A stretch of DNA of 64,000 nt from assembly GCA_009841255.1 (NCBI GenBank), contig VXMD01000038.1, positions 6,177-70,176 of the forward strand, written 5' to 3'. Below the pieces are notes generated by a model. That model saw nothing but the letters and a program-made list of their open reading frames with translations. It did no database searches and was not told where the DNA came from. This stretch comes from Candidatus Poribacteria bacterium (GTDB lineage Bacteria; Poribacteria; WGA-4E; WGA-3G). This document shows, piece by piece, positions 3,555 through 24,221 of the stretch. How positions within the stretch are numbered: the stretch's first letter is position 1; each line of letters starts with the position of its first letter. The translations under genes and the position numbers were made by a program.

Positions 3555-3584
3555 TGCAACCTTTTAAAAACTAAGTTACGTCAC
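3555..3584 (+). promoter_or_regulatory. ECF-sigma-type promoter motif TGCAAC-N18-CGTCAC (copy C), 82 nt upstream of the 3666 gene.
   Basis: TGCAAC at 3555-3560 and CGTCAC at 3579-3584. The same hexamers with the same 18-nt spacing occur at 10612, 12230 and 19155. AAC in the -35 element and CGTC in the -10 element are ECF hallmarks. Confidence 0.55.
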
Positions 3585-5424: not shown

Positions 5425-7266
5425 ATGGCTTCCGATAATTCTCACGCCCCCAACACAGAATCAGTATCGCGTCCATCGGTACTGAAAACGCTCCGCCGCT
5501 TTTGTTTCGTGGCGTGGCACGTCAGCCCGTTCGGCGCGATTGTTCAGGCGCTCCTGACGCTCGTATACGGAGGCATTCCTATTGGCATACTTTGGGCAAG
5601 TCGAGGACTCGTAAACCTTATTGCCGCCATCCTCGCCAACGAAACAGAACCGAGTCTACAGACCGCCGCACCCTGGGTGATCGCATTGGTCCTTCTGGCG
5701 ATTCTCAGAAATGTAACAGGCACGTATGACAGTTACTTGCGATGGAAGATGCAGAACCGCATTAGACTCTACCAACAGTGTCTTCTGATCGAAGCCGCAA
5801 CCCATATCGATTTTGCCGTTTTCGACCAGCCACAGACCTACGATTTGATCCAACGGGCGCGACAGGCTCTGGACCATCGGCTCACCAATGTCCTACGATT
5901 TTTAACCGAGATCGGGCAACTCTGTGTAACACTCATCGGATACGGTGTCCTGCTTTGGATCGCAGATCCGCTACTTGTACTTGTGGTCGTCCTACCCGCA
6001 ATCCCGTCGGCGTGGCTGAAAATTAAGACTGCTAAAAGCGGATACATCCACGATTACGATGCCACACCCGTCCGCCGTATGATGGCGTATATGCTGAGTT
6101 TATTGCTCGGTCCATCGTCTGGACAGGAGGTCCGACTCTACGGTCTTTTCGATCCGCTTTTCGGACGCTGGCGAACGAACCATCAAAAATGGCGAGAAGA
6201 GTCGCTTGCAAAGGTCTGGCTCCAAGCAAAAGGCTCTATCGGCACAACGCTTGCTGAAGTGCTTGCCTATTCTGTCGCGATCTTCATACTTGCTGAACGG
6301 ATCGTAAATGGAGAATTGACGCTTGGAGATTATGTGGTTCTCATCGGCGCCGCTGGAACGTTTCAAGCGGATCTTGAGAGTTTGCTGAGTGCGATACGAG
6401 ACGTCTTTGAAGATCTGCCGTTGCTTCAAGATTTACACTTTTTCTTGGAACGTGCGAAACGGGATCAGAGCCAAGCGGGAACACAGCAATTTCCACAACC
6501 CTTACAAACGGGATTAGAGGTCCGAAATCTTCGCTTCCGGTACCCAGAGGCGACTGAGGACGTGCTGCAAGACATAAATTTTCATGTGCGTCCCGGAGAG
6601 GTCATCAGCATCGTCGGGGTCAACGGTGCGGGGAAGTCAACACTCATCAAATTGCTACTCGGTCTCTATCAACCCGATGTTGGAACAATCCGCTATGACG
6701 GTATGCACGTGAAGTCAATTGACCCCGAACAGATTGCCCTTAACTGTGCCGCCGTTTTTCAGGATTTTGCGCGGTTCCGTCGACCGGTCCGTGAGGAATT
6801 AGTGCCAGGTCCACCGAACTATCATATTGAGGAAGAAACGCTGCAGCGCGTTATCAATGCGGTCGGTCTTGAGGAGCGTTTTCAGACCTTTCCACGCGGT
6901 TTAGATACATTTCTCGATCCGTCGCTTGGAGAAGAGGGTGAAGGCGTCGAGTTATCTGGCGGAGAATGGCAAAAGGTCGCGTTGGCGCGGGCTTTGGTCC
7001 GAAACCCACAAGTCCTCGTCCTCGACGAACCGACCGCCGCCTTAGATCCCCAAGCCGAAGTAGAACTTTACCAACAATTTGTTGAACTTGCATCGGGACG
7101 GATGACGTTCCTCATCTCACACCGGATCGGATCCGCTCGTCTCGCAGACCGTATTTTAGTATTAGACGCTAGTCGTATCGTTGAAGATGGCACACATGAC
7201 GCACTCCTCGCTACCAACGGACGTTACGCCCAATTCTTCAGAGCACAGGCGCGTTGGTATCAGTAG
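5425..7266 (+). CDS. ABC exporter, fused TMD-NBD (MsbA/type I exporter fold), subunit 1 of a probable heterodimer.
   Basis: Six TM N-terminal half. Walker A GVNGAGKST. Signature LSGGEWQKVALARAL. Walker B LVLDEPTAALD. H-loop ISHR. Confidence 0.85.
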   Translation: MASDNSHAPNTESVSRPSVLKTLRRFCFVAWHVSPFGAIVQALLTLVYGGIPIGILWASRGLVNLIAAILANETEPSLQTAAPWVIALVLLAILRNVTGTYDSYLRWKMQNRIRLYQQCLLIEAATHIDFAVFDQPQTYDLIQRARQALDHRLTNVLRFLTEIGQLCVTLIGYGVLLWIADPLLVLVVVLPAIPSAWLKIKTAKSGYIHDYDATPVRRMMAYMLSLLLGPSSGQEVRLYGLFDPLFGRWRTNHQKWREESLAKVWLQAKGSIGTTLAEVLAYSVAIFILAERIVNGELTLGDYVVLIGAAGTFQADLESLLSAIRDVFEDLPLLQDLHFFLERAKRDQSQAGTQQFPQPLQTGLEVRNLRFRYPEATEDVLQDINFHVRPGEVISIVGVNGAGKSTLIKLLLGLYQPDVGTIRYDGMHVKSIDPEQIALNCAAVFQDFARFRRPVREELVPGPPNYHIEEETLQRVINAVGLEERFQTFPRGLDTFLDPSLGEEGEGVELSGGEWQKVALARALVRNPQVLVLDEPTAALDPQAEVELYQQFVELASGRMTFLISHRIGSARLADRILVLDASRIVEDGTHDALLATNGRYAQFFRAQARWYQ

Positions 7267-7322: not shown

Positions 7323-9155
7323 ATGCGAAACGCTAACGGACAATTGAAAACATGGGGATCAGCCGCCAAGGAAAGTTTCGTCGCTTATGCTCGAACTTTG
7401 GTTGTTATATGGCAAAGCGGTTCGCTCGCTGTCTTGGGTATGTTCCTGCTCACCTTATTGCCCGGTCTTGTGCCTGCTTGCCAGTTTTTTGTGACGGAAC
7501 GCTTAGTCAATGCAATCATCGATGCGGTCGGCGAGGCAAACTGGTGGCAAATGGTTTTGCCGTGGCTCATCGGATTGGTGGGTTTACGTATTCTTAGCAC
7601 GGGTGTCGATCTATTGCGAGAACCGCTGTATACGCACTTAGGTGAAAACATTGAAATCTGGATTAACGACGGTATCGCCCGGAAAGTCGATACAGCAGAA
7701 TTAATCGAAATCCAAACCGCAGAATTTCAAGATTCACTGGAACGGGCACGCGCTGTCTCGGGACTCGTACTCCAGAATGTCCTCTGGTATCTCGTTGACA
7801 GCCTTCAACAACTCATCAGTGTCGTCACACTTGGCATCGTGCTGTGGCAGTATCATCCACTCTTGGCATTGCTCCCTGCATTGACGGGGGTTGCCTCTTG
7901 GTGGAGTGACACGCGTTTTTCGGCGGATCTTTACGATTTTGACGTGGAGCAGACCGCCCAACGGCGCGAACAGGATGCCTTGGAAGGAATCCTAACGGAT
8001 CGCGGCACAGGCAAAGAAATTCGGTTATACCAAACCCAAAACGTATGGATAGCACACTGGCATCGCTTAGGACAATCGCTTATAGACGGTCAAATGGGCA
8101 TACGACGGAAGAAATTCTCAGTCTGTCTTGCGCTTGATACCACACGCGGCTTGTTATACGCAGGATCGCTCATTCTTTTATTGTTGGAAGTCTTTCGTGG
8201 CGAGTTGACCGTCGGCACATATATTGCCGCTGCCGCCGCCTTGGTCCAATTAGACGGCATCTGGGACGCTGTCGCCTTTCAATTTCAGGCGATCGTTGAA
8301 GAAATGCGTCCACTGTTTGGGGATCTGTATCGGTTTCTTGACAGACAGTCCGATACTCGGGCCCCTGACACAACCGGTGGAAAAATAAATGAATTCGACG
8401 GAGACAGTACGGTTCAAGATATTGCAGTAGAAGACATCTCATTTTTTTATCCAAATTCGGAAAAACCGGCGTTAACTGATATAACACTCACATTCAAAAA
8501 AGGCGAACGGGTTGCAATCGTTGGACCCAATGGTGCAGGGAAGACCACACTGGCACGTGTATTATTGGGACTCTACCGACCACACTCCGGCAGCGTTCGT
8601 GTCGGAGAGATACCCTTAACCAAAGAGAATCGTCGAGCGTGGCTCACACACTGCAGTGCCGTGTTTCAGGACTTTACGCAGTACCACCTTACCGCACGTG
8701 AGAACATTACCTTCGGTGACCTCGAACATCCAGAACGCATGGAAACGGCATCTATCGCCGGTGGTGCGGCTTCAGTTGTTGACGGACTCGCAGAAGGTTA
8801 CGAGACAATCCTCGGTCCCACTTTCGGTGGCCGTGATCTCTCCGGTGGTGAATGGCAACGTCTCGCAACAGCCCGGAGTTTCATGCGGGAAACCCCGTGG
8901 CTTGTTGTCCTCGATGAACCGACTGCCGCGCTCGATCCGCTCGCTGAACAGGCGGTCTATGAACGCTTTATTGAACGGAGTGTCGGGCAGACGTCCGTGC
9001 TCATCTCGCATCGGCTCTCTTCTGTCCGCACCTGTGATCGGATTCTCGTCCTTGACAACGGAAGCATTGTCGAAGACGGTGACCACGAAACGTTATTGGC
9101 AAAGGATGGGCTTTATGCCCAGTTCTTCAAAGCGCAAGCGCAATGGTATGTTTGA
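7323..9155 (+). CDS. ABC exporter, fused TMD-NBD, subunit 2 of the probable heterodimer.
   Basis: Walker A VGPNGAGKTTL. Signature LSGGEWQRLATARSF. Walker B VVLDEPTAALD. C-terminus AQFFKAQAQWYV matches the partner's AQFFRAQARWYQ. Confidence 0.85.
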   Translation: MRNANGQLKTWGSAAKESFVAYARTLVVIWQSGSLAVLGMFLLTLLPGLVPACQFFVTERLVNAIIDAVGEANWWQMVLPWLIGLVGLRILSTGVDLLREPLYTHLGENIEIWINDGIARKVDTAELIEIQTAEFQDSLERARAVSGLVLQNVLWYLVDSLQQLISVVTLGIVLWQYHPLLALLPALTGVASWWSDTRFSADLYDFDVEQTAQRREQDALEGILTDRGTGKEIRLYQTQNVWIAHWHRLGQSLIDGQMGIRRKKFSVCLALDTTRGLLYAGSLILLLLEVFRGELTVGTYIAAAAALVQLDGIWDAVAFQFQAIVEEMRPLFGDLYRFLDRQSDTRAPDTTGGKINEFDGDSTVQDIAVEDISFFYPNSEKPALTDITLTFKKGERVAIVGPNGAGKTTLARVLLGLYRPHSGSVRVGEIPLTKENRRAWLTHCSAVFQDFTQYHLTARENITFGDLEHPERMETASIAGGAASVVDGLAEGYETILGPTFGGRDLSGGEWQRLATARSFMRETPWLVVLDEPTAALDPLAEQAVYERFIERSVGQTSVLISHRLSSVRTCDRILVLDNGSIVEDGDHETLLAKDGLYAQFFKAQAQWYV

Positions 9156-10488: not shown

Positions 10489-10611
10489 AACCAAATTTCA
10501 CATCATTTGTCCCTCTGAAGTTCGACATAGCAAAGTAGCGGGGCTCTCCGCGCAATAGCGGTAGCATGATCTGTTACGCCGACTTAAATTTTCGCGTTAT
10601 TCCGAAAATAG

Positions 10612-10641
10612 TGCAACTTCTTGGAACCCAAAATCCGTCAC
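10612..10641 (+). promoter_or_regulatory. ECF-sigma-type promoter motif TGCAAC-N18-CGTCAC (copy A) upstream of the TlpA-like gene.
   Basis: GAAAATAGTGCAACTTCTTGGAACCCAAAATCCGTCACTTAAATTAA. Near-identical over ~48 nt to the copy at 12221-12268. Confidence 0.6.
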
Positions 10642-10718
10642 TTAAATTAACAGATATAAAATTTTACTCAAATTGCTACTTGCAAATTCAATGCAAGTTC
10701 TACTTTAAAGGGGAAAAA

Positions 10719-12122
10719 ATGCGCTTCGTAACGATTAACCTATTCCTTGTCTGTTTATTTCTGTTTGGCATCGGTCACCTCGCTTTTGGACATGATGAAA
10801 TTGAAACGGCTTCTGAATCACACGGTCCCTATATGGGCGACGCGTCTTGGGATGCCGCGCTTGAAACGTTCTATGAACTTCTCAAGACGGATCCAAAAGC
10901 GGCGCGCGTGGAACTCGAGAACGTTGCCAAAACGTTGTTCAACGAACATCCGCGGACAGAAGAGTGGGTGGAACTTTTTTACCAAGTCTTCTACCAAATC
11001 AGTCTAAAGGAAGCTCAAGAAAAAGAAACCGAGCCCCCCTGGCAGCTTATTTCGGAAATCAAACGTCTATATGAACTCGGACTCGAAATGCTAACTTCTA
11101 TGGATACAGAGAAGTACGCAAAGCAGATACAAGTTCACCAAGATGCCCTTGATTACTATACAGAACTCGCTGAATTCGCCGAGATTATGGGCGATAAATC
11201 ACTGAAATCTGAAGAGATCGCTCCGAACAAGCAGAACCACACTTCTCAATCTGAGTCAGCATTATCTGATGCGGAAGACCAAATCGCTCATCAGCAGTAT
11301 ATGGAGAAATTTTTCGAGTTGCTACCGACCGACCCAGAAGCCGCACGTCAGGAACTTGAAACCTATGCTGCAAAGTCATATCAGGGACATCCGCTTACAG
11401 AAGAATGGGTGGCACACTTTTTTCGTATGGGAAGTGACGGGGAAGCATCGGTTTCAGATATTACCCGTTTTATGGAAATGACAAAACAGATACGAACCGA
11501 TATGGATCCTGAAAAGTATGCTAAAGAAATCAAGGGATTAGAAGATAGTTTGACGCAACTGAAAATGGTTGCAACATTCTATGAACGCGACGGGATAACT
11601 GATGCAAAGATTCCATTCAACCCAAACGTAGGCGACAAGAAGCGTGAACAGAAAAGTGCTTCGGATGCCCCCAAGGTCTCCCATACTGAGAAAATCGGCA
11701 AACCTGCGATGGATTTTGAGGTAATAGACTTGAAGGGTCAGGAGCTCTCATTAAAGAAATACCGCGGACAGGTCGTGCTACTTGACTTCTGGGCGACATG
11801 GTGTTTTCCGTGTAGGGCAGAAATGCCGCATCTCAAAAGGGTTTATGATAAATACAAAGACCAAAAATTTGAGATTATTGGGATCAGTTTAGACCATGGA
11901 AGGGCAGTGCTTGATTCGTATGTTGAAAAACAGAATATCACCTGGCTTCAGTTTTTGGATGAGGGGGGTGCCGTTACACAAATGTATAACGTTAAAGGAA
12001 TTCCGGCGACCTTTCTGATTGATGGAGAAGGGATCGTTCGCAAAGTTGAACTCCGTGGGCGCGCGCTTGAGGCAGCTGTCGCGGAACTGGTGAAGGAGAA
12101 TCTGTCTCAGCAGACCAAATAG
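10719..12122 (+). CDS. TlpA/ResA-like periplasmic thiol-disulfide oxidoreductase (thioredoxin fold, WCFPC active site) with an N-terminal tandem-duplicated ~120-aa domain of unknown function.
   Basis: Signal peptide MRFVTINLFLVCLFLFGIGHLAFG. C-terminal LLDFWATWCFPCRAEMPHLKRVY...IIGISLD...GIPATFLIDGEGIV. Two N-terminal repeats share (DP)KAAR.ELE..A...(Q/N).HP.TEEWV and D.EKYAK(Q/E)I. Confidence 0.8.
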   Translation: MRFVTINLFLVCLFLFGIGHLAFGHDEIETASESHGPYMGDASWDAALETFYELLKTDPKAARVELENVAKTLFNEHPRTEEWVELFYQVFYQISLKEAQEKETEPPWQLISEIKRLYELGLEMLTSMDTEKYAKQIQVHQDALDYYTELAEFAEIMGDKSLKSEEIAPNKQNHTSQSESALSDAEDQIAHQQYMEKFFELLPTDPEAARQELETYAAKSYQGHPLTEEWVAHFFRMGSDGEASVSDITRFMEMTKQIRTDMDPEKYAKEIKGLEDSLTQLKMVATFYERDGITDAKIPFNPNVGDKKREQKSASDAPKVSHTEKIGKPAMDFEVIDLKGQELSLKKYRGQVVLLDFWATWCFPCRAEMPHLKRVYDKYKDQKFEIIGISLDHGRAVLDSYVEKQNITWLQFLDEGGAVTQMYNVKGIPATFLIDGEGIVRKVELRGRALEAAVAELVKENLSQQTK

Positions 12123-12161: not shown

Positions 12162-12229
12162 TATAAATCCAATTCGAAAGAATTTAGAAACCCACCAGAA
12201 ATTGATTTTTCACATTATTCTGAAAATGA

Positions 12230-12259
12230 TGCAACTTCTTAAAACCTAAAATCCGTCAC
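12230..12259 (+). promoter_or_regulatory. ECF-sigma-type promoter motif TGCAAC-N18-CGTCAC (copy B), 40 nt upstream of the ECF sigma-fusion gene. This is a putative autoregulatory promoter.
   Basis: GAAAATGATGCAACTTCTTAAAACCTAAAATCCGTCACTTAAGTTAA. Confidence 0.6.
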
Positions 12260-12298
12260 TTAAGTTAAAAGGTGTAATAATTCCGGAGGAGGCTGGTA

Positions 12299-15200
12299 GT
12301 GGAACACAGCGATGCTGAACTCATTCAACGGGTATTACAAGGCGATCAGGATGCGTTCGGTCCCTTAGTCGAAAAGTATCAGAAGGGAGTTCACGCGCTT
12401 GCTTGGCGAAAAATCGGCGATTTTCACATCGCACAAGAAATTGCGCAGGACGCGTTCTTCAAGGCATACCAGCAACTCGGAACCCTAAAAAACCATAACC
12501 AATTTGCGGGATGGCTGTATGTCATCGCGGCACACTTGTGTGCTGACTGGTTCCGAAAACATCGCCCACCGGAACAATCCTTAGAAGTTACTGATATGAG
12601 TGAGGTGAATGAAGTGTCATACTCTCGATACATCGCAGAAAAACAGGCAACCGAAGCCGATGAAGCGCGTCGTGAAGTCGTTAAGAAGCTGCTCCAGAAG
12701 TTACCAGAAAGCGAACGCACCGTGATGACGCTTTACTACCTCGGTGAAATGACGATCAAAGCCATTTCCGAGTTTCTCGGGGTCTCTCCGAACACCATCA
12801 AAAGCCGCCTGAGTCGCGCACGCGATCGTCTAAAGAAGGAAGAAGACCTGATTCGACAAAATCTCAGCAGTTTCCAACTGCCTGCTAACTTGACACAGGA
12901 TATCATGAACGAGATCTCACGTATCGTCCCTGCAGCACCCACTGCGAATAAACCTGTAGTGCCTTGGGTGTTTTCTGCGGCATCTGCTGTCTTAATTTTT
13001 CTTTTGATGGGGGTTGGCACACAATATCTCTCCCGTTTTCAGAAACCCTACGATTTGAACGCCACATCGGAACGAACAGTTGAACTCATTGAGGCGGTTT
13101 TGGTCTTAGATTCACCCACGAAACCTGCGGTGCGAAATCAGGCAGGAAGTTCATCGACGCCCGGTAGGAACCCGGGTGCAGGTCAGCAACCCGATGCGCG
13201 ACTTTTTGCCGCCGCACTTGTGGATGAAACCGAGGTTTCAACGCCAGAACCGCAGTGGATCCAAACGAAGGGACCCGCAGGCGGGCTTGTCAATACCCTC
13301 TTCACGACAAGGCGTGGAGACATTTACGCTGGAACTTCCACGAATTTTTACAAGATGGCAGACGACAGACATTCATGGAAACTCGTCATCGCTGGAGGTC
13401 CAACCTCACTCAGCCTGAAAGATTGGATAATGGGCGGCACACAACAAATGGCAGAGCGAGATGATACACTCTACGTTGCTATCAATGGAGAGGTATCGGC
13501 TTCTACAGATTATGGTGAGACATGGATGTCGCTCGATGCGCACCCAAAAGGACAACCCGTCGGGTTCGTCTTAACGGATGGGGTCCCTGGGGCAGAAGTC
13601 GACATGACCCTGAACCTTGCTCTCGTTGACGGTGTATTCCGTTCTGTGGACGCCGGCAAGTCGTGGATACCTCTGAACGATGGAAATTTGGCAGATCGAA
13701 AAATTCGTGCAATTGCCGCCGTTGAAAACACCCTGTTTGCTGGGACTGACAGTGGACTCTATCGACGCAACGAGGATACATGGGAAAGATTGACCATCCG
13801 TCCGGCAGAGACCTCCGAAAATCAATTCGCTATCCATGCCTTAGCCGTCGATGAACATCGTCTCTATGTTGCTGCGGGGGACGAACTCACAAATCAGAAT
13901 CAGCTTGGGATGCAATTTAGGGCTACGCTGACAGGAAGTGGCCAGTGGTCCCTTTACCGTTCAACCGATCGAGGCGATACATGGTATTCCATAGATCCAC
14001 GAAAAAGGCAAGAGCAGGAGGAAGAGAGACAACAGAGGGGACAATTTGGGGGAGGTTTCCCATTCCCTGGTGCAGAGGAAACAGAAATCTATATGCCCAG
14101 TGTCAAGCTCTTCGCGACGCCCGGTAGGATTGTCGTCGCAGATGCGTTTGGAGAACTTTTCTACTCCATGAATACTGGGGAAACCTGGACTGCTTTAGAT
14201 GTAAAGAGCGGGTCAGGTTACAACGTGCCGCCGCCTGTGCTGATGATGGACGAGAACACTTTCTACAAAGGAGGACCTTCTGGGGTTCAGACCACAATTG
14301 ATGGTGGCAAAACGTGGTCTGAGTTTAATAGCGGACTCGTGGGCACTCCCGTTCAGACGCTCATCGCTGTTAAGGGTGAGCTCTACGCAAATTCAACAAA
14401 TGGGTTTATCTCCTCAACGGATAGGGGTGAATCGTGGATGCCGCTTCCCAGTGAGATTGACCACGGTGTCATTATTGAGGCGTTTGACGATACTTTGTAT
14501 GTAAAGAGAGGGAATCACATGAATACCCCTTCACCTATAGCCCGTCTATCCACCGAGGACAATAGTCTAACGTTTATCCCCGGCATGCCTGCCTTTGAAA
14601 GCGTCACGTCACAAAATATGGACGAAGAAATGAACAAAATTATGATGGAAGCGTTTACCGACAAGGCTCAGCAAAGCCTTGAAAAAGGCGAGCCACCAAA
14701 TCCCGAGGATGTTGATTTTGACCAGTTAAATGAAGCCATGAATAAGGTTATGCAAGAACAAGCCTCGGCTGGTCTGCTGGCGTTTATTGGAAGATTTGCC
14801 GTGAGTGGCGATACCTACTATGTGGAATATGGGAAGGCGCTTTACAGATGGAAACCGGGTATGCGTGAATGGCACAACACGGGTTTAGTAGATCAAGGCG
14901 AAGACGCTTTTGCATCCCTATTCTCCGGTCCTTTTGATTATTCCACTGATGTCTCCACTTCTTATGATACCATTAATTCTAGCGGTTTCAAAATCGCCGT
15001 GTCGGACAGCACGGTTTACATCGGAAAACGGGAAGGGCACCTCTTTCAATCGTTTGATGAAGGGGACACATGGAACGATGTTACTGCAGATATCCCGTTC
15101 TCTTTTGAGAAATTCGATGCAATCGCTTTCGCAGGACCTACCGTCTACGTGGCAACCGACAAAGGCATTGCGTATTCGAGCGACGGCACGCACTGGCACG

Positions 15201-15433
15201 CCACAACCGATACCGAAGGGAGAACGCCTGTCATTTCCCGATTGGCAGTGGTAGGCACAACGGTATATGGGCAGACTGACCAACACGTGTATCTGTTGAA
15301 AGAGGGTTCTAATATATGGAAACAGGCAACACCCGAACTCCCAGGCTCGGTCATCTCTTTCGCTGTTGATGGCAACACACTGTATATCGGAACTGCGAAT
15401 CGTGGTGTCCTGCGTTTCACGCTTGATGAATAA
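12299..15433 (+). CDS. ECF (group IV) sigma-70 factor fused to a single TM helix and an ~800-aa extracytoplasmic BNR/Asp-box-repeat beta-propeller domain.
   Basis: GTG start with GGAGGA RBS. Sigma region 2: LIQRVLQGDQDAFGPLVEKYQKGVHALAWRKIGDFHIAQEIAQDAFFKAY. Sigma region 4: ERTVMTLYYLGEMTIKAISEFLGVSPNTIKSRLSRARDRL. TM helix VVPWVFSAASAVLIFLLMGVG. At least eight S-x-D-x-G-x-(T/S)-W Asp-boxes (STDYGETW, SVDAGKSW, STDRGDTW, SMNTGETW, TIDGGKTW, STDRGESW, SFDEGDTW, SSDGTHW). Confidence 0.85.
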   Translation: MEHSDAELIQRVLQGDQDAFGPLVEKYQKGVHALAWRKIGDFHIAQEIAQDAFFKAYQQLGTLKNHNQFAGWLYVIAAHLCADWFRKHRPPEQSLEVTDMSEVNEVSYSRYIAEKQATEADEARREVVKKLLQKLPESERTVMTLYYLGEMTIKAISEFLGVSPNTIKSRLSRARDRLKKEEDLIRQNLSSFQLPANLTQDIMNEISRIVPAAPTANKPVVPWVFSAASAVLIFLLMGVGTQYLSRFQKPYDLNATSERTVELIEAVLVLDSPTKPAVRNQAGSSSTPGRNPGAGQQPDARLFAAALVDETEVSTPEPQWIQTKGPAGGLVNTLFTTRRGDIYAGTSTNFYKMADDRHSWKLVIAGGPTSLSLKDWIMGGTQQMAERDDTLYVAINGEVSASTDYGETWMSLDAHPKGQPVGFVLTDGVPGAEVDMTLNLALVDGVFRSVDAGKSWIPLNDGNLADRKIRAIAAVENTLFAGTDSGLYRRNEDTWERLTIRPAETSENQFAIHALAVDEHRLYVAAGDELTNQNQLGMQFRATLTGSGQWSLYRSTDRGDTWYSIDPRKRQEQEEERQQRGQFGGGFPFPGAEETEIYMPSVKLFATPGRIVVADAFGELFYSMNTGETWTALDVKSGSGYNVPPPVLMMDENTFYKGGPSGVQTTIDGGKTWSEFNSGLVGTPVQTLIAVKGELYANSTNGFISSTDRGESWMPLPSEIDHGVIIEAFDDTLYVKRGNHMNTPSPIARLSTEDNSLTFIPGMPAFESVTSQNMDEEMNKIMMEAFTDKAQQSLEKGEPPNPEDVDFDQLNEAMNKVMQEQASAGLLAFIGRFAVSGDTYYVEYGKALYRWKPGMREWHNTGLVDQGEDAFASLFSGPFDYSTDVSTSYDTINSSGFKIAVSDSTVYIGKREGHLFQSFDEGDTWNDVTADIPFSFEKFDAIAFAGPTVYVATDKGIAYSSDGTHWHATTDTEGRTPVISRLAVVGTTVYGQTDQHVYLLKEGSNIWKQATPELPGSVISFAVDGNTLYIGTANRGVLRFTLDE

Positions 15434-15524: not shown

Positions 15525-16094
15525 ATGATCCGATTTTTTATTTTTCTCACGTTTTTTGTCATCTTCACAGCTGGAAATACTGGCTGCGATCACGCCCCTG
15601 ATGGCGTGGATGAAGAAACGTCGGTCAGCACCGTCGAGAGGTTGAGTGAAGAAGACAAAGCAGCCCTTGCAAATAAGTTGAAATCTCTAGATTATCTGTT
15701 ATCTCGCCCACTCGAACAGCGAATAGCAAGGTCACAAGAATATGTGCGCAAGTATCTTGAACTCGAAGATAAAGACAGTGCGGAAGCATTAGAGACACTC
15801 ACAATGGCTTTGTATATCCACGCTAAGGGAGATCATCCTCTCTTGGAAGAATGGGTAGTTCTCGCACATAAGGTTTTCCGGGAAAAAGAAGCAACGGTGC
15901 CGGAGCTTCTGCGTGCGAAGCAGATAGAACTCCAAATCGCGCGCGATAACAATGAAAGTCGGAAGCATATTAAAGCTTTGGAAGAAGATGCTGAACTATT
16001 TGAACATCAGATTCAGGACCTTAAAGCACAGGGGGTAAACCCTCAAGAATTCAAAATTTCTGTAGAAGTCGAGGGTGATGAAGATGAAGAGTAA
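15525..16094 (+). CDS. Hypothetical lipoprotein carrying one copy of the 'EEWV' domain found duplicated in the TlpA-like protein. Acidic C-terminus.
   Basis: RBS AAGGAGGAAC. Signal plus Cys (FTAGNTGC). HPLLEEWVVLAHKVFREK resembles HPRTEEWVELFYQVF and HPLTEEWVAHFFRM in the 10719 protein. Confidence 0.6.
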   Translation: MIRFFIFLTFFVIFTAGNTGCDHAPDGVDEETSVSTVERLSEEDKAALANKLKSLDYLLSRPLEQRIARSQEYVRKYLELEDKDSAEALETLTMALYIHAKGDHPLLEEWVVLAHKVFREKEATVPELLRAKQIELQIARDNNESRKHIKALEEDAELFEHQIQDLKAQGVNPQEFKISVEVEGDEDEE

Positions 16095-16132
16095 CCCTAT
16101 TTTTTAGTGTTTCTAATGTGGAGGAAATTGAA

Positions 16133-16687
16133 ATGCGTCAGTTAAAAGGGTTATTTATCTGTTTGTCAGTTTTATTAACTGTATCGCTCATTTTTAAGTT
16201 TGGGTGTACCACCGAAGAATACGGTAAAACAGGATTTGATATTGTATTGGCAGTTACCGGCATGACACGAGTTACTTCTGCCTTCAGCGTTATGAACGCA
16301 TTGCAAAAGATTGATGCATTGGTTATTGATGATGCAACTTACAAGGTAATAGGAGCCACACTGCCGTTTGGTAGGGTGAAAAATGAGTCGCCAGTTACAA
16401 TAAAGTATCCTCATCACACTGAAAAGGTTAAGAATGAAATGACCGAGCCAGTTTTGGAAAACAAAATAGGCTGGAATCTGAAGCCTAATGAACCGAAATA
16501 CTTTATTGTTCAGGTAAGGGCACTCGCTGAGGCAGATCCCACTAATGATGTGAATGAAGTAATCTCAGAGCGTGTAAAAGCAGCTTTAATAGAAGTCGTC
16601 GAAAAAGTGGGGTTTGAAGCGCGTGTGGAGAGCATAGAAGCACTCGAAGCAACTTCTACGAAGCGTTACACATTCGGACCCAATTAG
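16133..16687 (+). CDS. Hypothetical lipoprotein (signal peptide, FKFGC lipobox-like).
   Basis: ATG at 16133 with GGAGGA 7 nt upstream. The ORF-track GTG at 16118 sits inside the RBS. Hydrophobic N-terminus LKGLFICLSVLLTVSLIFKFGC. Confidence 0.55.
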   Translation: MRQLKGLFICLSVLLTVSLIFKFGCTTEEYGKTGFDIVLAVTGMTRVTSAFSVMNALQKIDALVIDDATYKVIGATLPFGRVKNESPVTIKYPHHTEKVKNEMTEPVLENKIGWNLKPNEPKYFIVQVRALAEADPTNDVNEVISERVKAALIEVVEKVGFEARVESIEALEATSTKRYTFGPN

Positions 16688-16712
16688 CAATCCAAGAACT
16701 GTAGGCGTGCTT

Positions 16713-16743
16713 CCCGAGCACGCCTTTTTTATTCTGTAAACTC
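16713..16743 (+). terminator. Rho-independent terminator: AGGCGTGCT-tcccg-AGCACGCCT followed by TTTTTTATT.
   Basis: Perfect 9-bp stem, 5-nt loop and U-tract, 26 nt after the stop at 16687. Confidence 0.75.
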
Positions 16744-17095: not shown

Positions 17096-19048
17096 ATGAA
17101 ATACATATTATATATCATAGTTTTTTTCACGCTTACTGTATCCCCACAAACGTTTGCTGAAACGCCAGACGGCACAATTCCTTTCGATTGCCCTGATATA
17201 CCAAACCCCAAGTTTCAATTCCACTTCACCCGTGAACTGATCGCGCTTGCTGTTACAACAGCACCCTTCAATACCGTGGACGATCTTTACATCCAAATTT
17301 ACGATGATGAAGCAGGTATTTATGATAAACTCGCGCAATACTACGGCGAGGAGGTGAAAGTAAAAAACTGGCACGGTGTCCAAGAAGATGATAGGGTCCG
17401 ACTCTATGTCCCGGACGGAACCGCTCTGCAAAATCCGCAGGCAGATGACACCTTCACGGGCATCTTTGCAGTCGTAAAAGGCGATGCGGCCATCTATCTG
17501 CTAAACATCGTTGGGAGTGTTCCAACGCAACAAACGGGTCGGCTCTTGGGGAGTCTCGGTGAACTCGGCATTGAGATCTCTGAATTGAAATCGCTTCCGG
17601 CGTTGGAGATTGATAAGCGATCTTTATCTTCACCGACAGGCTTCCGAATAGCCGATGGTTCCCCAATTCATGAAATTCAGATTAAAGGCAATCAGAAAAT
17701 TGATCGGACGGAGATTCTCGAAACGCTTGAAGCAGGTGACGAGGACATCGATAAAGCGGTGGAAGCACTACGAAAAAAAATGGGATACAGGTTAGAAGGC
17801 GTAGAAACATCAGTTAAACAGGAAAATGACAAGCATATTGCGGTCATTACTGTGAAGGAACGTCCTTCGCAGTCTGCCGGCTTTGGTGGTGGGGGACCTA
17901 TTATTAATTTTAACCGTGTCACAGGTTGGGAACTCGGTGCTGAACTCGAAAGTAGGCTTCCGGGTGCTCGTCTTCCAGACGGCACTTTGGCTTCAAAGCT
18001 TTTAGGATATATAGGCTACGGATTTGGAAACCGGCTGGTCAATTACGAGATTGGCGGAAAAACAATGCCTTTTTTGGCGTATACACACCGATCAGGAACA
18101 ACTACTTTTGGAGATAAATCTGACAAATGGTATCTTGGATTCGGAGTAGATGCCAAAGTCTACCGTGTCACGGACATCACAACACCGATTCTTGCTGTTG
18201 TTGATGACTATGGTTCCGCTTACTATGATTCCCCTTTTCGGCTACTGTATAGCCTTTTTGGTGGAACCGATCTTCATAATTATTATTCGAGAAGAGGATT
18301 TGAAATTGGCTTGCGATGGGAAAATTTACCACGACCCGTGCCTACTTCTATCCCAATGCACTTAGCGAAGTTGACGTTTCTTGTTGAAAACCACGAGAGT
18401 CTAAAAAAAAGCACAGATTGGCATTTCTTCAATTGGCATTCAACGTCAAAAGCGAGAGAGAATCCAGTAATAACACCCGGTCGCATGCGGAGCGTCATGT
18501 TTGAATACGATCTTAACACCCGCCGAGACTACTTGGGTTGGCATAATACTTTCTTTGTTGAGCATAGTAGATCCGCCTTCGGCTCGGATTTCGATTTTAC
18601 GCGCTATCAACTCCATCTCCGTTATGCACATCCACTCGGTAAACATCAGATACGGACCCGCGCGGTCGGCAGTTTTTCAACCGCCTCCCTACCGATCCAA
18701 CGCCAATTTACCATCGGGGGTCCAGGGGTATTGAACGGCTACCCGCTCTACGCTTTCGCGGGGGACCGTGGCTACCTCTTCAACATCGAATATTTCTACC
18801 CTTTCCCGGAACTACCCACCTGGAGAAACATGCAATTTGATTTTTTTACGCTCTTTCTGGTGTTTTTCCTTGATGCAGGTCAGGCATGGAACATAGATGA
18901 CGAAAGATCTACGTTTGTGCCGAAGACCGATGCCGGTATCGGTTTCCAGTTCGGTGAACGCGACTCCTTTCTACGCTTTAATGTTGCGCAGGCTTTTGAA
19001 GCAGAACAAGGTGTGCAATTCAACCTCCTCTGGTTTTATAGTTTTTAG
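17096..19048 (+). CDS. Omp85/BamA-TamA-family outer-membrane beta-barrel protein with POTRA-like module(s) and a distinctive ~180-aa N-terminal domain (paralog 1).
   Basis: Signal peptide MKYILYIIVFFTLTVSPQTFA. POTRA-like IHEIQIKGNQKIDRTEILETLEAGDEDIDKAVEALRKKMGY. C-terminal barrel motifs GGPGVLNGY..., FLDAGQAW, GIGFQFGERDSFLRFNVAQAF and the terminal ...WFYSF. Confidence 0.65.
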   Translation: MKYILYIIVFFTLTVSPQTFAETPDGTIPFDCPDIPNPKFQFHFTRELIALAVTTAPFNTVDDLYIQIYDDEAGIYDKLAQYYGEEVKVKNWHGVQEDDRVRLYVPDGTALQNPQADDTFTGIFAVVKGDAAIYLLNIVGSVPTQQTGRLLGSLGELGIEISELKSLPALEIDKRSLSSPTGFRIADGSPIHEIQIKGNQKIDRTEILETLEAGDEDIDKAVEALRKKMGYRLEGVETSVKQENDKHIAVITVKERPSQSAGFGGGGPIINFNRVTGWELGAELESRLPGARLPDGTLASKLLGYIGYGFGNRLVNYEIGGKTMPFLAYTHRSGTTTFGDKSDKWYLGFGVDAKVYRVTDITTPILAVVDDYGSAYYDSPFRLLYSLFGGTDLHNYYSRRGFEIGLRWENLPRPVPTSIPMHLAKLTFLVENHESLKKSTDWHFFNWHSTSKARENPVITPGRMRSVMFEYDLNTRRDYLGWHNTFFVEHSRSAFGSDFDFTRYQLHLRYAHPLGKHQIRTRAVGSFSTASLPIQRQFTIGGPGVLNGYPLYAFAGDRGYLFNIEYFYPFPELPTWRNMQFDFFTLFLVFFLDAGQAWNIDDERSTFVPKTDAGIGFQFGERDSFLRFNVAQAFEAEQGVQFNLLWFYSF

Positions 19049-19154: not shown

Positions 19155-19184
19155 TGCAACCTTTGGGTCCCTAAGTGTCGTCAC
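19155..19184 (+). promoter_or_regulatory. ECF-sigma-type promoter motif TGCAAC-N18-CGTCAC (copy D) upstream of the PA14 membrane protein gene.
   Basis: GAAAAAAATGCAACCTTTGGGTCCCTAAGTGTCGTCACCTTATT. A second, decayed copy (TGCAAC at 19258-19263, -10 position TAGTAA) follows 100 nt downstream. Confidence 0.5.
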
Positions 19185-19373
19185 CTTATTCATAGGATGT
19201 TAAATTTTTTAGCGAAGTCGTGATAAACATGTTTATAATCTGAGAGAATGAAAAAACTGCAACTTTTTGGGAACTCGTTTGTAGTAATGTAAGGGATATA
19301 CTTGTTGGAGGTATCTCCGAATCCCGACCTCTTTTGTAGATACACCTGTCTCACACGCATGAGGAACACCAAA

Positions 19374-20546
19374 ATGCGAGGACGCACAAACCGAGCCTTA
19401 TTGCTATCCTTTGCGCTCCATATCGTGGGAATGTTGGCGATTTCGCCGTTTCTTATCACCCATTTCCATGTAGAGAAAGAGAGCATATCCGCTGAGATAT
19501 TGGAACCAGAATCCGAGCAGCGCGTGAGACAGCGGATTTTGCCGCCACGCACACCTGTGATCCCACAAGTAAGTGAGCCAGAGGCATCCCCCTCCTCCCC
19601 CGCTTCGCCGACGTATGCACGAGAGGTGACCGTTCCCAAGGCACCCCTTCACGCCGATGTAATTCCGGATGTGGTTACGCACGCCGATCTCCCCCAATCA
19701 GATGCTCCGAGTCCTGTATCCAATGCCAGTTTGGGAGAGGATGGCGAACTGTCGGGGCCCATTGTCGCTGAAGGACAGCGGGGAACCGGGGTTGGTGGAC
19801 TTGGACACCGTGGACGTGGGACCGGCGGGTATGGGACCGGAAGACACTTTGCCAAGGGGAGAGGTGTATCGGATGTGGAACTCGCAACGCTTGAGGGCAT
19901 AGGCACAGGACTCGGTATCTTCGACACAAATGTGATGTCCGGACACGGATTAATCGCTGAAGTTTACGTCCCAGGGGGTCGGATCCATCGAATGCCGGAT
20001 TTCGATCTTTTAACCCCTGTCTATACCTTTGTTACAGCAAACTTAGACATCTCTGAACGAGACTATACCGAGGGATTTCCGACACCAGAAATGCAGCATG
20101 TTGTTGAGGACTTTGCAATCCGATTCCGAGGAGAGTTAGCAATTGAGACCCCCGGGTTGTACCAGTTTGGGCTTTATTCAGATGACGGGGCAAAACTCTA
20201 TATTGATGGGACGCTTGTCGTGGACAACGATGGAATTCACGCGGGGAGAGGAAAACGGGGCAGTATAACGCTCTCAACAGGTGTATATCCCGTTGAGATT
20301 CAATACTTCCAAGGACCCCGATACTCTATCGCGCTACAGTGGTATTATGCCCCCCCGAATGAACCCTATTCTGAGACAAGGCGCTCCATTTCAATAACAA
20401 TCCCCACATGGGAATTGAGATCGGAGGAATATATACTCGGTAGGATTGTGCCACCCGAAGTTATCTATCGGCCCCACAAACCCCGCATTCCAGACGCATT
20501 GAGAAAACTACAACAGCGCCTGAAGAACATTGACAACGCACACTGA
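19374..20546 (+). CDS. Membrane-anchored, TonB-like protein (N-terminal TM, Pro-rich linker) with a C-terminal PA14 domain.
   Basis: ATG at 19374 with GAGGA RBS. TM LLLSFALHIVGMLAISPFLI. Pro-rich ILPPRTPVIPQVSEPEASPSSPASP. PA14 signature GLYQFGLYSDDGAKLYIDGTLVVDNDGIHAGRGKRGSITLSTGVYPVEIQYFQG. Confidence 0.7.
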   Translation: MRGRTNRALLLSFALHIVGMLAISPFLITHFHVEKESISAEILEPESEQRVRQRILPPRTPVIPQVSEPEASPSSPASPTYAREVTVPKAPLHADVIPDVVTHADLPQSDAPSPVSNASLGEDGELSGPIVAEGQRGTGVGGLGHRGRGTGGYGTGRHFAKGRGVSDVELATLEGIGTGLGIFDTNVMSGHGLIAEVYVPGGRIHRMPDFDLLTPVYTFVTANLDISERDYTEGFPTPEMQHVVEDFAIRFRGELAIETPGLYQFGLYSDDGAKLYIDGTLVVDNDGIHAGRGKRGSITLSTGVYPVEIQYFQGPRYSIALQWYYAPPNEPYSETRRSISITIPTWELRSEEYILGRIVPPEVIYRPHKPRIPDALRKLQQRLKNIDNAH

Positions 20547-20733: not shown

Positions 20734-23172
20734 ATGAAGTATACGATTACAAAAGCATTGATGGCACTTCTGCTTCTCATTAGCCCTGCAGTGCAATCAC
20801 AGTCGAATAACGGTACTGTCGCCTTTGATTGTCCAAATCTGCCATCCTCTGAATTCCAGTTTGACTTGGACAGGCGCGTCATTGCACTCGTAATGGAGGA
20901 GCCGACTTCTAATATTGCTCCCCTGTTTAACAACATAGATAATTTACATCTCCGCAACTATCGAAGTCGATCTGTCGATCTTAAGGAAGTTGTTCAATAT
21001 TACGGAGAGACCCTAAAAGCGCGCAGCTGGAACATATTGGGACACCCTTTGCAAGGCGATGTCGAAGACGACAATTTGCATCTCTACACCTTTCAAGTAA
21101 ATGAGACCCTTCAAGGGATCTTTGTTATTGTTAAAAGCGGTGGTGATGTATATCTGATAAATATCGTTGGCGAAATCCCCAAAAAGCAGCTCGGTGGATT
21201 GTTGCTCAATCTTCACCAACTCGGTATTGAGATTCCTGAACTCATGTCGCTGAAACCTCGCGATCTGGAAATCGCGCCCCCTCCACCGCTCCCAACGCCT
21301 AAAGTTGTCGAGCCAACGCCAGCACCTGTGGAAAAAGAAACACACAAGCAAAAACGCACCCATACTGCTGAAGAGGTATCCCCATCGTTACAAGAAACCC
21401 AAGAGCCGGCAACGTCATGGAATTGGACGTTTGATGGCGAGCAAATTCACGACATTCAAATCCAAGGTGTCAACGGGATTGAAAGTGCCAATATTGTGAA
21501 AATCCTTGAAAATGGGTCTGGTGATGTCACTGAGGTCATGCCTATCCTTACACGCGTGCTCCTCAATAGCTCGAAAAAAGCATCTTTACGTGTCGATGAA
21601 GCTGATGCTAAACGCGTTGCAATAATTAATGTGGAAGATATCCCCGTTACCCGAACAATATCTGTTCTGAGATCTTTAAATATTTCTGGCTCTCGCGGTG
21701 ACAAAGTCCACAAATCATCTTTTGATAAGTTGATTTTGCAAAAATTAGCAGAGGCGCAAATTCTGACGGACGGCACCCGCTTTCGAGCCGGGAATGCACC
21801 CATCCATGAAATACGCATCCAAGGAAATCAGAAGATATCCGAAGCACAGATTCAACAGGCACTTGAAAACGGTTCCGAGGATCTTGAACAAGCCCTCAAA
21901 ACACTCTATAAAGCGATGCCCTACTTTGAAGAGGTAAACCTAAAAGTCGATGAGGAAAATTCTAAATACATCGCCACAATTACTGTTGATGAGAAACCGC
22001 TTTCTAACACTTATCTCGGTCTTAATCCGCCGATACGCTTCGGATTTAATCGAGTAACCGGCTGGGAAATCGGTACCGGTTTTGAAGTGGGCAAACGAAA
22101 AGATTTGGGACCGCTTTGGGCATGGCGCGTCAGCAATTCAAGGAGTGAGCAAACTTCAAATTTCTTTGGAAAGGCAAGTTATGCATTCGGCAATCCGCAT
22201 GTCCATTATCGCATGGGCGGCACTGCGAATTGGGGAAAACCGTATATCTGGAATCTCGGGCTCACAGCGCAAATTCATCGCTTAACAGATGCAGTTGCCC
22301 CTGAAATGTTTCCAAACTACAACAATAACGCATCTATTTCTCAACGCGTCATTGGTATAGCAGACCTTCAAAATTACTATCTGCGACAAGGTGCGGAGAT
22401 CGCGTTGCGATGGGCACCGGTGCTGCCGACCCACGCGTTCAAATTGGCGATGGTTACAGAATCCCACGCGAGTCTACAGAAAAGCACGGATTGGTTTGTC
22501 GCCAATTGGAAATCGAACCTCCAGGTGAGGGACAACCCTCCCATAAGTCCCGGTCGAATGCGAAGTCTCACCCTCCAATACGACTTTAAGGATCAAGCAA
22601 GTCTCTTGGGATGGCATAATACCCTTCTCATTGAACATAGCAACGCCGCTGTCGGCTCCGATTTCGATTTCACACGCTTGCTGTTGCATCTTCGGTACGC
22701 TTTCCGACTCCAGAATAACCGAATCCGAACTCGATTTCTATTTGGGTTTTCCGACTCGACTTTACCAATTCAACGCCAATTTGTCATTGATGGGATGGGG
22801 GGACTCAGAGGGTATTCTTGGAGAAAACCGGCAAGTGAATCTGAAGGTCCAATAACTTACAAGAGTGGACACAGGTCTTCTCCATACACGTTTGCGGGAG
22901 ACCGCGGATTCCTCCTCAACATCGAATACCATCATCGTTTATCGAATCTACTCAGTTGGCGTATTTTCAGAAATGCCTTTGCTATTGTGTTTTTTGATGA
23001 GGGGCAAGTCTGGAACGTATCGGGTCCAAAGTATATCTTCGATCCGAAAGGGAATATCGGCCTCGGTTTACAATTTGGAGCAGGCGAGGATGTTTTCCGA
23101 GTCAACATTGCAAAAGCCTTTGAATCCAGCAGAGGTATCCACGTTACGACAGTCTGGTCCCAGCGTTTTTAG
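20734..23172 (+). CDS. Omp85/BamA-TamA-family outer-membrane beta-barrel protein (paralog 2) with a Pro-rich insertion and two POTRA-like modules.
   Basis: Signal peptide. N-terminal domain homologous to the 17096 protein (VAFDCPNLPSSEFQF / IPFDCPDIPNPKFQF; YLINIVGEIPKKQLGGLL / YLLNIVGSVPTQQTGRLL). C-terminal barrel ...FDEGQVWN...GIGLGLQFGAGEDVFRVNIAKAF...VWSQRF. Confidence 0.65.
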   Translation: MKYTITKALMALLLLISPAVQSQSNNGTVAFDCPNLPSSEFQFDLDRRVIALVMEEPTSNIAPLFNNIDNLHLRNYRSRSVDLKEVVQYYGETLKARSWNILGHPLQGDVEDDNLHLYTFQVNETLQGIFVIVKSGGDVYLINIVGEIPKKQLGGLLLNLHQLGIEIPELMSLKPRDLEIAPPPPLPTPKVVEPTPAPVEKETHKQKRTHTAEEVSPSLQETQEPATSWNWTFDGEQIHDIQIQGVNGIESANIVKILENGSGDVTEVMPILTRVLLNSSKKASLRVDEADAKRVAIINVEDIPVTRTISVLRSLNISGSRGDKVHKSSFDKLILQKLAEAQILTDGTRFRAGNAPIHEIRIQGNQKISEAQIQQALENGSEDLEQALKTLYKAMPYFEEVNLKVDEENSKYIATITVDEKPLSNTYLGLNPPIRFGFNRVTGWEIGTGFEVGKRKDLGPLWAWRVSNSRSEQTSNFFGKASYAFGNPHVHYRMGGTANWGKPYIWNLGLTAQIHRLTDAVAPEMFPNYNNNASISQRVIGIADLQNYYLRQGAEIALRWAPVLPTHAFKLAMVTESHASLQKSTDWFVANWKSNLQVRDNPPISPGRMRSLTLQYDFKDQASLLGWHNTLLIEHSNAAVGSDFDFTRLLLHLRYAFRLQNNRIRTRFLFGFSDSTLPIQRQFVIDGMGGLRGYSWRKPASESEGPITYKSGHRSSPYTFAGDRGFLLNIEYHHRLSNLLSWRIFRNAFAIVFFDEGQVWNVSGPKYIFDPKGNIGLGLQFGAGEDVFRVNIAKAFESSRGIHVTTVWSQRF

Positions 23173-24068: not shown

Positions 24069-24221
24069 GGCTTCACGATCACGGAACATTGATGTTTGAT
24101 AAAGATCTTTTGGATATGTTATACTTAACGCATCATCAAAATCTTCTGCGTGGAAACCTTGCCCCTTAGGGTGGGGGACGTGACAAACTTTGGAAGGGTA
24201 GCACGCTTTAGTACCCGCAAA

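Follow-up and report, generated by a model that had tools for sequence, protein, structure and literature searches.

An extracytoplasmic function sigma factor joined to a predicted membrane helix and tandem beta-propeller, one member of a large modular family in Poribacteria

The stretch analysed here, 64,000 nucleotides of a Candidatus Poribacteria contig (VXMD01000038.1; hereafter the window), contains a gene whose product joins an extracytoplasmic function (ECF) sigma factor, a short linker, a predicted transmembrane (TM) helix and a large predicted beta-propeller ectodomain in a single polypeptide (Table 1). A reading made from the letters alone, without database searches (the sequence-only reading), had proposed one 1044-residue protein with complete sigma regions 2 and 4, a short linker and a single TM helix, and no separate anti-sigma gene nearby. 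All of this held: the open reading frame (ORF) is uninterrupted, with no frameshift; both sigma regions score above their Pfam and NCBIfam cutoffs; one strong hydrophobic segment follows 36 residues after the sigma domain; Pfam scans of the 64-kb window found neither a second sigma gene nor an anti-sigma domain; and a search of related genomes recovered full-length orthologs.

The sigma domain was recognized by Sigma70_r2 at residues 23-89 (45 bits, cutoff 24), by Sigma70_r4_2 at residues 127-178 (57 bits, cutoff 25.7) and by Sigma70_ECF (26 bits, cutoff 21) in Pfam, and by the NCBIfam model TIGR02937 for sigma70-ECF factors (90.9 bits, cutoff 42.9). No match to sigma region 3 or 1.1 was found in the protein with either collection, so that it presents the composition of the ECF (group 4) factors, with sigma2 and sigma4 only and matches to the ECF profiles. 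No NCBIfam model of equivalog level was reached, the highest-scoring one being SigW (123 bits against a cutoff of 209), and SigW (E 5e-33) and RpoE were the nearest solved structures in a search with a profile of the orthologs. An AlphaFold model of residues 1-335, built from a diverse mixed alignment, gave predicted local distance difference test (pLDDT) values of 80-92 for sigma2 and 73-83 for sigma4; the full-length model (mean pLDDT 62 overall) was poor in the sigma, TM and juxtamembrane stretches. Judged by these profiles, residues 1-182 constitute a genuine sigma factor of the ECF type.

The same arrangement was recovered in more than 100 clusters from 5.8 billion proteins searched, with 61-87% identity over 100% of the length, sizes of 1014-1070 residues and an identical domain set, and every organism name given among them was Candidatus Poribacteria. 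For ten divergent full-length relatives a single organism name was obtained, and it too was Poribacteria. Among these orthologs the best-conserved part is the sigma region, followed by the stretch directly after the TM helix. The architecture is found in many assemblies, complete chromosomes included.

To describe the segment that connects the sigma factor with the ectodomain, we used an alignment of 124 diverse relatives, from which all conservation values and residue counts below and in Table 1 are taken. The 36 residues between sigma4 and the TM segment contain one conserved helix at about residues 196-207 (LPANLTxxIMxEI), and helices at 182-191 and 196-207 were modelled at low confidence in the model of residues 1-335. 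A class I anti-sigma domain would not fit into this linker, and Pfam and NCBIfam matched nothing of the N-terminal or zinc-finger (ZAS) anti-sigma type between sigma4 and the helix. Residues about 219-241 form the only segment with a Kyte-Doolittle hydropathy above 1.6, and the mean charge of its flanks (+1.05 on the sigma side, -0.91 on the far side) fits an orientation with the N-terminus inside and the C-terminus outside. The TM frame is strikingly regular, consisting of K218-P219-x-x-P222-W223, a hydrophobic core of 15 residues and then G238-x-G/S240: P219 is kept in 123 relatives, P222 in all 124 and G238 in 121, the core has exactly 15 residues in 119, and both 238 and 240 are small residues in 121. 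The helix is followed by [S/N/T]-Q-Y-L-x-R-F-Q-x-P-Y, with FQ[KQR]PY present in 105 relatives, as part of a longer juxtamembrane consensus (QYLxRFQxPYxxxAxSExTVExIxA...KPxVRNQxG) that is common to members with any ectodomain. Its conservation is close to that of sigma2 irrespective of the ectodomain carried, which argues for a common partner or a common processing step at the membrane.

The ectodomain, for which the sequence-only reading had proposed a single eight-bladed Asp-box propeller of about 800 residues, spans about 720 residues (about 326-1044) and is predicted to face the periplasm or the cell surface. The Asp-boxes stand, five with the strict S-x-D-x-G-x-x-W pattern and three degenerate, and all eight are kept in the orthologs and sit late in the blades of the model, so that the protein has the repeated blade motifs of BNR/Asp-box proteins. 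The blade count does not stand: strand groups in the full-length AlphaFold model give about 14 four-stranded blades (propeller pLDDT mostly 70-90), with a disordered insert at 570-597 in the first propeller and a helical one at 771-829 in the second. Together with the matches to tandem-propeller structures described next, this rules out one eight-bladed propeller.

Foldseek placed GH74 xyloglucanases at the top of its PDB matches (E about 6e-24, TM-score 0.55-0.61 normalised to the target, 13-17% identity), followed by the periplasmic tandem-propeller sensors of Bacteroides hybrid two-component systems, which superpose poorly (TM-score 0.2-0.3). The modelled tandem of seven-bladed propellers is the architecture of GH74; membership of that family by sequence was found in neither Pfam nor NCBIfam, and matches to GH74 chains were local, at the level of single repeats (E 1e-5 to 6e-3). 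Pfam matches in the C-terminal part were all below threshold (Sortilin-Vps10, BNR at 18 bits, DUF6242). The Sortilin/Vps10 profile PF15902 scored 31.7 bits against a cutoff of 33; five paralogs of one genome pass it with 39-59 bits, and the ten-bladed sortilin propeller does not correspond to the two seven-bladed propellers of the model. The NCBIfam model for F510_1955 glycosylhydrolase-like proteins reached 86 bits at residues 898-1038, below its cutoff of 175. The ectodomain is thus, as modelled, a pair of seven-bladed Asp-box propellers in a GH74-like tandem.

The protein does not stand alone. An exhaustive HMMER search of 1.84 billion cluster representatives at 50% identity gave 427 matches at E <= 1e-30; among the matches listed, about 50 representatives align over the full length with 35-57% identity and more than 90 align only from residue 1 to about 300-320, with 50-58% identity and total lengths of 400-1283 residues. 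The C-termini of these latter relatives are WD40 arrays in 32 of 55, and LRR, Kelch, C-type lectin plus CarboxypepD_reg, Laminin_G_3, Reg_prop, GHL15 and transglutaminase domains are found fused to the same N-terminal module. One member (locus L081, 6001-8994) carries a Trypsin_2 domain at residues 334-463 and then about 10 TPR repeats, so that a sigma factor is there fused in cis to a periplasmic protease-type domain. With a WD40-type module as query, 2133 clusters were retrieved at E <= 1e-20. The commonest cluster type among these WD40-module relatives is a short form of about 442 residues (e.g. P0308), the sigma-TM-juxtamembrane module plus about 140 residues without a Pfam match, and one cluster holds 96 sequences.

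Species-representative genomes encode the module at no fewer than 574 loci (a lower bound), the best 80 of which are nearly all labelled Poribacteria; the search patterns were specific, so restriction to the phylum is not proven. Two or three module matches lie in 32 of 82 sequences (81 loci and the window), with a match limited to the sigma domain (33-35% identity) in three of these 32. In L020, L026 and L027 a conventional stand-alone ECF sigma gene, 33-35% identical, stands near the family gene (about 300-900 nt upstream or nearby). A single 6.1-Mb chromosome has at least nine members at four loci: six of BNR/sortilin type, two that could not be assigned and one with the sigma-TM-Trypsin_2-TPR arrangement. 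Two related loci carry two (943 and 1044 residues) and three (1009, 1051 and 1049 residues) sigma-TM-propeller genes, respectively, and both share ABC, Omp85, PA14, DUF4159 and TlpA-like neighbours with the window. The edge of the window itself cuts a paralogous propeller gene, whose remaining fragment has the same ...LRFxLDE ending and falls outside both identity tiers of the close homologs. When 72,556 plasmids were searched at the protein level, with a sigma-WD40 member as query, the matches covered the WD40 part only and no sigma-WD40 fusion turned up. Databases label the family proteins only as 'sigma-70 family RNA polymerase sigma factor'. The sigma-TM-juxtamembrane chassis is therefore common to a large, often tandemly arrayed Poribacteria family with interchangeable ectodomains.

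The family also appears to share a promoter. A candidate autoregulatory site of the ECF 'AAC ... CGT' type, TGCAAC-N18-CGTCAC, precedes the sigma gene, and the window has four exact copies of the pattern where 0.01 would be expected, each on the + strand, in intergenic DNA and upstream of co-oriented genes. In many genomes, sites of the form AAAATAATGCAAC-N18-CGTCAC were found about 35-75 nt before the start codons of family genes, and the strict pattern TGCAAC-N17-19-CGTC precedes 41 of 79 family genes in other genomes. A weight matrix found only the same number of matches above 12 bits in the window, four, at 42-56 bits (47.7 bits for the sigma gene, at 12222-12263), with shuffled sequences reaching at most 9. 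Over about 1 Mb of loci plus the window, all 85 matrix matches of at least 22 bits lie on the strand of the sigma gene; 61 precede family sigma genes (39 of them sites on which the matrix had been trained), five precede TlpA-like genes and four PA14 genes. Since sites ahead of family genes had served to train the matrix, independent evidence comes from the non-sigma sites and the count of the exact pattern only. This distribution looks like that of an autoregulated ECF sigma factor with an envelope-related putative regulon. The idea that a sigma factor and a transmembrane sensor have been collapsed into one protein thus gains backing from the conservation of the protein, the family-wide ECF-type promoter and the domain swaps on one module.

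The genes around the sigma gene are listed in Table 1. Two genes for 189-residue proteins are predicted to be co-transcribed with it. The first has a clear counterpart only in L001 and one weak match in L040, and is 33% identical over 93 residues to the TlpA-like protein, with a common 'HPLxEEWV' repeat; homologs of the second, with 47-82% identity, immediately follow a BNR-type sigma gene at 10 other loci. Both proteins start with a hydrophobic, signal-like segment and would thus have no cytoplasmic N-terminal domain. We rejected them as hidden anti-sigma factors on account of this signal- or lipoprotein-like start, the lack of a Pfam match and the recurrence of only the second type. The true start of the TlpA-like protein is probably the Met codon at about 10719 (MRFVTINLF...), because the promoter copy at 10612-10641 falls inside the longest ORF; its N-terminal region of about 320 residues holds two 'HP(L/R)TEEWV' repeats, also present in the first 189-residue protein.

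Between the promoter copy at 3555 and the MacB-type permease gene stand two paralogous ABC ATPase genes (5425..7266 and 7323..9155, + strand), whose products are 32% identical and have each an N-terminal extension of about 380 residues without a Pfam match. Two Omp85 paralogs (17096..19048 and 20734..23172, + strand) are 39% identical, the second with an extra DUF4252 and POTRA, and a perfect sigma-70 promoter (TTGACA-17-TATAAT, 16781-16809) lies ahead of the first. Further along, four PhyH (phytanoyl-CoA dioxygenase) genes cluster with a short-chain dehydrogenase gene (24150..25010; 26418..27254 and 28543..29331, both - strand; 29574..30395); a single-cell genomics study of Poribacteria has supplementary tables on phyH genes and gene clusters (PMC3909097). 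A 1129-residue ORF at 31343..34732 (- strand) has no significant Pfam match, and a flotillin/SPFH-family gene (47434..49734, + strand) coincides with an excess of A over T (skew 0.23 at 48-50 kb). The domain composition of HtrA was confirmed. A role for it as the dedicated protease found no support in position, motif or context, and we dropped it: the gene lies 41 kb away on the other strand, lacks the family promoter, and is absent from the 10-kb flanks of the sigma gene in L001 and L002, the two loci examined for gene content.

Table 1. Position of the sigma-propeller gene, its predicted parts, candidate promoters and neighbouring genes in the window (residues refer to the sigma-propeller protein; cons., conservation)
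Feature	Residues	Position	Strand	Remarks
Sigma gene ORF		12299..15433	+	1044 aa, uninterrupted, GTG start
Shine-Dalgarno GGAGGAGG		12285..12292	+	6 nt upstream of the GTG start, read off the sequence
ECF sigma factor domain	1-182	12299..12844	+	sigma2 aa 23-89, sigma4 aa 127-178; predicted cytoplasmic
sigma2 (conservation region)	1-90			cons. 0.75
sigma4 (conservation region)	126-182			cons. 0.80
Cytoplasmic linker (predicted)	183-218	12845..12952	+	cons. 0.65
Single TM segment (predicted)	219-241	12953..13021	+	cons. 0.59; hydropathy peak
Conserved extracytoplasmic juxtamembrane segment (predicted)	242-283	13022..13147	+	cons. 0.68
Following linker (conservation region)	284-330			cons. 0.38
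Low-complexity linker, probably disordered	284 to ~325	13148..13273	+	pLDDT <50, low conservation
First seven-bladed Asp-box beta-propeller (modelled)	~326-680	13274..14338	+	Asp-boxes 402, 449, 555 (strict), 623, 666 (relaxed)
Second seven-bladed Asp-box beta-propeller (modelled)	~681-1044	14339..15433 (incl. stop)	+	Asp-boxes 706, 918 (strict), ~960 (SSDGTHW, one residue short)
Candidate autoregulatory ECF-type promoter of the sigma gene, TGCAAC-N18-CGTCAC		12230..12259	+	-35-like 12230-12235, -10-like 12254-12259
Family promoter copy		3555..3584	+	upstream of two genes of unknown function (3666..4511, 4569..5237), the ABC ATPase pair and the permease gene of MacB type (to 10488); 55.9 bits, top score of the window
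Family promoter copy		10612..10641	+	upstream of TlpA-like gene; exact pattern and weight matrix
Family promoter copy		19155..19184	+	upstream of PA14, DUF4252/POTRA/Omp85 and DUF4159 genes; exact pattern and weight matrix
Paralogous propeller gene, C-terminus		3..377	+	120 aa, cut by window edge; 55% identical to aa 925-1044
TlpA-like thiol:disulfide oxidoreductase		10566..12122 (longest ORF)	+	AhpC-TSA domain, 102 bits
Predicted lipoprotein		15525..16094	+	189 aa, N-terminus ...TAGNTGC, no Pfam match; predicted co-transcribed with sigma gene
Predicted membrane-anchored protein or lipoprotein		16118..16687	+	189 aa, no Pfam match; predicted co-transcribed with sigma gene
Predicted intrinsic terminator closing the sigma operon		~16703..16735	+	10-bp stem, 6 G-C pairs, T-run
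PA14-domain gene		19302..20546
DUF4252/POTRA/Omp85 gene		20734..23172	+
DUF4159 gene		23340..24068
HtrA		56621..57994	-	41 kb from sigma gene, opposite strand

These data could be accommodated by a one-component transmembrane sigma receptor that is released by regulated proteolysis, a reading to which we give about an even chance. The tethered sigma factor would be held at the membrane in an inactive or poorly active state until the propeller binds a ligand, for which its fold makes a glycan or glycoconjugate the most plausible candidate. Binding would make room for a site-1 cut, either in the juxtamembrane segment or where the TM helix ends on the outside, an intramembrane protease of the S2P/RseP type would then cut the helix and free the sigma domain, and the freed sigma would switch on its own promoter and a local envelope regulon. 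More speculatively, G238-x-G/S240 after the fixed 15-residue core could be a masked site-1 of signal-peptidase type, comparable to that of RsiV. The involvement of proteolysis is suggested by the precedent of IutY, the proposals made for ECF48, ECF52 and ECF53 and the parallel with RsgI, all discussed below.

Several observations weigh against regulated release. Every mechanistic step beyond the anatomy is our inference, and the helix is itself predicted from hydropathy, conservation and charge bias. As there is no fused anti-sigma domain, unlike in IutY and ECF52, tethering alone would have to silence the sigma factor. The TM and juxtamembrane parts acquired no confident fold in either AlphaFold model (juxtamembrane pLDDT <36). 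The window contains no S2P protease gene, and the proteases that it encodes (HtrA, FtsH and M28, M6 and M20 peptidases) are all unlinked to the sigma locus. In addition, some of the weight-matrix matches are the sites on which the matrix had been trained, and a single promoter motif, apparently common to all paralogs, raises the question of how signals would be kept specific.

Some of these same points would suit a sigma factor that is never released and reads its promoters while anchored, in the manner of ToxR or CadC, with the ligand changing oligomerisation or conformation and the change being relayed through the juxtamembrane segment and the rigid P-x-x-P-W frame. Such a protein would need no anti-sigma domain to silence it and no linked protease gene, the conservation of the cytoplasmic linker and TM frame in both sequence and length is what would be expected if geometry matters, and, as the target promoters adjoin family genes, coupled transcription, translation and insertion could hold the DNA near the membrane. 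We know, however, of no sigma factor that acts while membrane-anchored, and on a tether of 36 residues sigma4 and sigma2 would have little freedom to dock into RNA polymerase. With its short core and small-x-small motif, the segment looks more like a processing site than like a stable signalling helix, and IutY, the only characterised membrane-fused ECF factor, requires proteolytic release (PMC8999054). On balance, activity in the anchored state seems unlikely to us.

If the small-x-small motif is indeed a processing site, it could also be cut constitutively: signal peptidase would cleave after G238-x-G/S240 on translocation, leaving the propeller as a free periplasmic or surface protein, possibly glycan-binding or glycan-cleaving, and freeing about one sigma stub for each, which would report or amplify production of the secreted domain. 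The 15-residue core followed by small residues in 121 of 124 relatives does resemble the h-region and c-region of a signal peptide, related propeller-only proteins of about 725-790 residues with short N-termini exist (P0135, P0234, P0256, P0268), and the fold of the ectodomain resembles GH74 enzymes. Constant release combined with positive autoregulation would nevertheless run away, the strong conservation just past the putative site suggests that access to it is regulated, the domains of most paralogs are binding scaffolds (WD40, LRR, Kelch, TPR) rather than enzymes, and there is no sequence-level membership of GH74; we consider this possibility quite improbable. Almost no credence is due to the idea that sigma and propeller are separate genes wrongly joined, or that the sigma part is a non-functional remnant, for which the sole favourable point is that such fusions are unusual: the full-length architecture recurs in more than 100 independent clusters, in many assemblies and in complete chromosomes, because of which we reject a frameshift or assembly artefact, the sigma domain is the most conserved portion of the protein, and a fitting ECF-type promoter has been conserved in front of the gene.

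Fusion of an ECF sigma factor to a C-terminal extension is in itself known (IutY, ECF52, ECF57). What is new is that the same sigma-TM-juxtamembrane module is found on WD40, LRR, Kelch, C-type lectin, LamG, TPR/trypsin-like and transglutaminase domains, often in tandem arrays and with one shared candidate promoter. The words 'BNR', 'propeller' and 'Poribacteria' are absent from the main text of the ECF reclassification paper (PMC7826278), and the literature that we searched contained no paper joining Poribacteria with ECF sigma factors and nothing relevant on membrane-bound, tethered or anchored sigma factors. That a BNR propeller on an ECF factor had not been described, as the sequence-only reading supposed, is consistent with this search; WD40-like, propeller-type extensions have, however, already been described for ECF57. 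A study of 2014 had remarked on the abundance in Poribacteria of WD40, LRR and similar repeat proteins that have TM helices, with no mention of sigma factors (PMC3909097).

Tentatively, and as a possibility that we hold with less than even confidence, Poribacteria may have a phylum-specific, highly expanded receptor system built on one chassis, with swappable and often 'eukaryote-like' ectodomains (WD40, LRR, Kelch, TPR, C-type lectin, sortilin-like propellers), release without an anti-sigma domain (possibly by a masked signal-peptidase-type cut at G-x-G/S and then S2P) and one promoter type for envelope functions. If so, many of the repeat proteins long seen in the genomes of these dominant uncultivated sponge symbionts would not stand alone but would serve transmembrane sigma factors as their sensing part. 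Tying the repeat domains to a transcriptional output would yield testable hypotheses on what is sensed (e.g. host or matrix glycans) and what is changed (envelope, export, outer-membrane functions). The family differs from IutY in the lack of an anti-sigma domain, in its sharply defined membrane and juxtamembrane signature and in its natural domain swaps on one chassis, which are a ready-made experiment on signal transmission by such receptors; synthetic biology could draw from the family a compact "sensor plus sigma" part that comes with a defined promoter and may be orthogonal.

Among known systems, IutY of Pseudomonas putida (ECF243) is a sigma/anti-sigma hybrid released by Prc and RseP, and according to a review it is the sole experimentally characterised membrane-fused ECF factor activated by regulated intramembrane proteolysis; proteolytic activation has been proposed for ECF48, ECF52 and ECF53 (PMC8999054). 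Like IutY, the Poribacteria protein unites an N-terminal ECF sigma factor, a single predicted TM helix and an extracytoplasmic C-terminal part in one polypeptide. In IutY, however, the fused part includes an entire anti-sigma factor, and the protein acts in iron signalling together with a TonB-dependent receptor, whereas the Poribacteria protein has no anti-sigma domain and instead a 36-residue linker, a predicted tandem Asp-box propeller and a large modular family of paralogs.

The nearest published group, judged by the description of its extension and cysteines, is ECF57. ECF57 (formerly ECF01-Gob) comes from Planctomycetes, has a very long C-terminal extension with WD40-like repeats and a mean of 5.3 copies per genome, and is counted, with no anti-sigma factor invoked, among the ECFs governed by their own regulatory extension. 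Many Poribacteria relatives likewise carry WD40 arrays on the same sigma chassis; the protein described here differs in its host phylum and in a BNR/GH74-like double propeller in place of a WD40-dominated extension. ECF57 also has two conserved cysteines, in sigma2 and sigma4, whereas our protein has only C81, with Ile at position 153; C81 is nearly invariant, and a second Cys at about 153 is present in about 40% of the relatives examined. The actinobacterial groups ECF52, ECF53 and ECF48 (e.g. SCO4117) resemble it in having a membrane-spanning C-terminal extension with an extracytoplasmic domain, which is carbohydrate-binding in SCO4117, but their zinc-finger (ZAS-type) anti-sigma domain, with one or two TM helices, and extensions of at most about 400 residues have no counterpart in the Poribacteria protein.

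On the outer side, the SigI/RsgI systems of Clostridia and Bacilli offer a similar succession of TM helix, conserved juxtamembrane element, disordered linker and variable, often carbohydrate-binding module, and they have many paralogs per genome, with each sigma autoregulated and intramembrane cleavage by RseP/RasP (PMC10556640, PMC10328401, PMC12203970). In those systems the anti-sigma protein RsgI and its SigI-type sigma factor are two distinct polypeptides, whereas the Poribacteria sensor is fused to its sigma. The SEAL domain of RsgI, largely confined to Firmicutes, is folded and self-cleaves at a conserved Asn-Pro hairpin, in contrast to a Poribacteria segment of about 40 residues without a confident fold; a SEAL-type autoproteolytic juxtamembrane domain found no support, with Asn-Pro in only 38 of the 124 relatives and at no conserved position. 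GH74 xyloglucanases have the tandem of seven-bladed propellers in common with the modelled ectodomain, at the low identity given above, and the Bacteroides hybrid two-component sensors pass their signal to a kinase and a regulator, where the Poribacteria output would be a sigma factor. By analogy, the protein would work most like IutY and the fused sigma receptors of the ECF52 type, with an outer side resembling that of RsgI.

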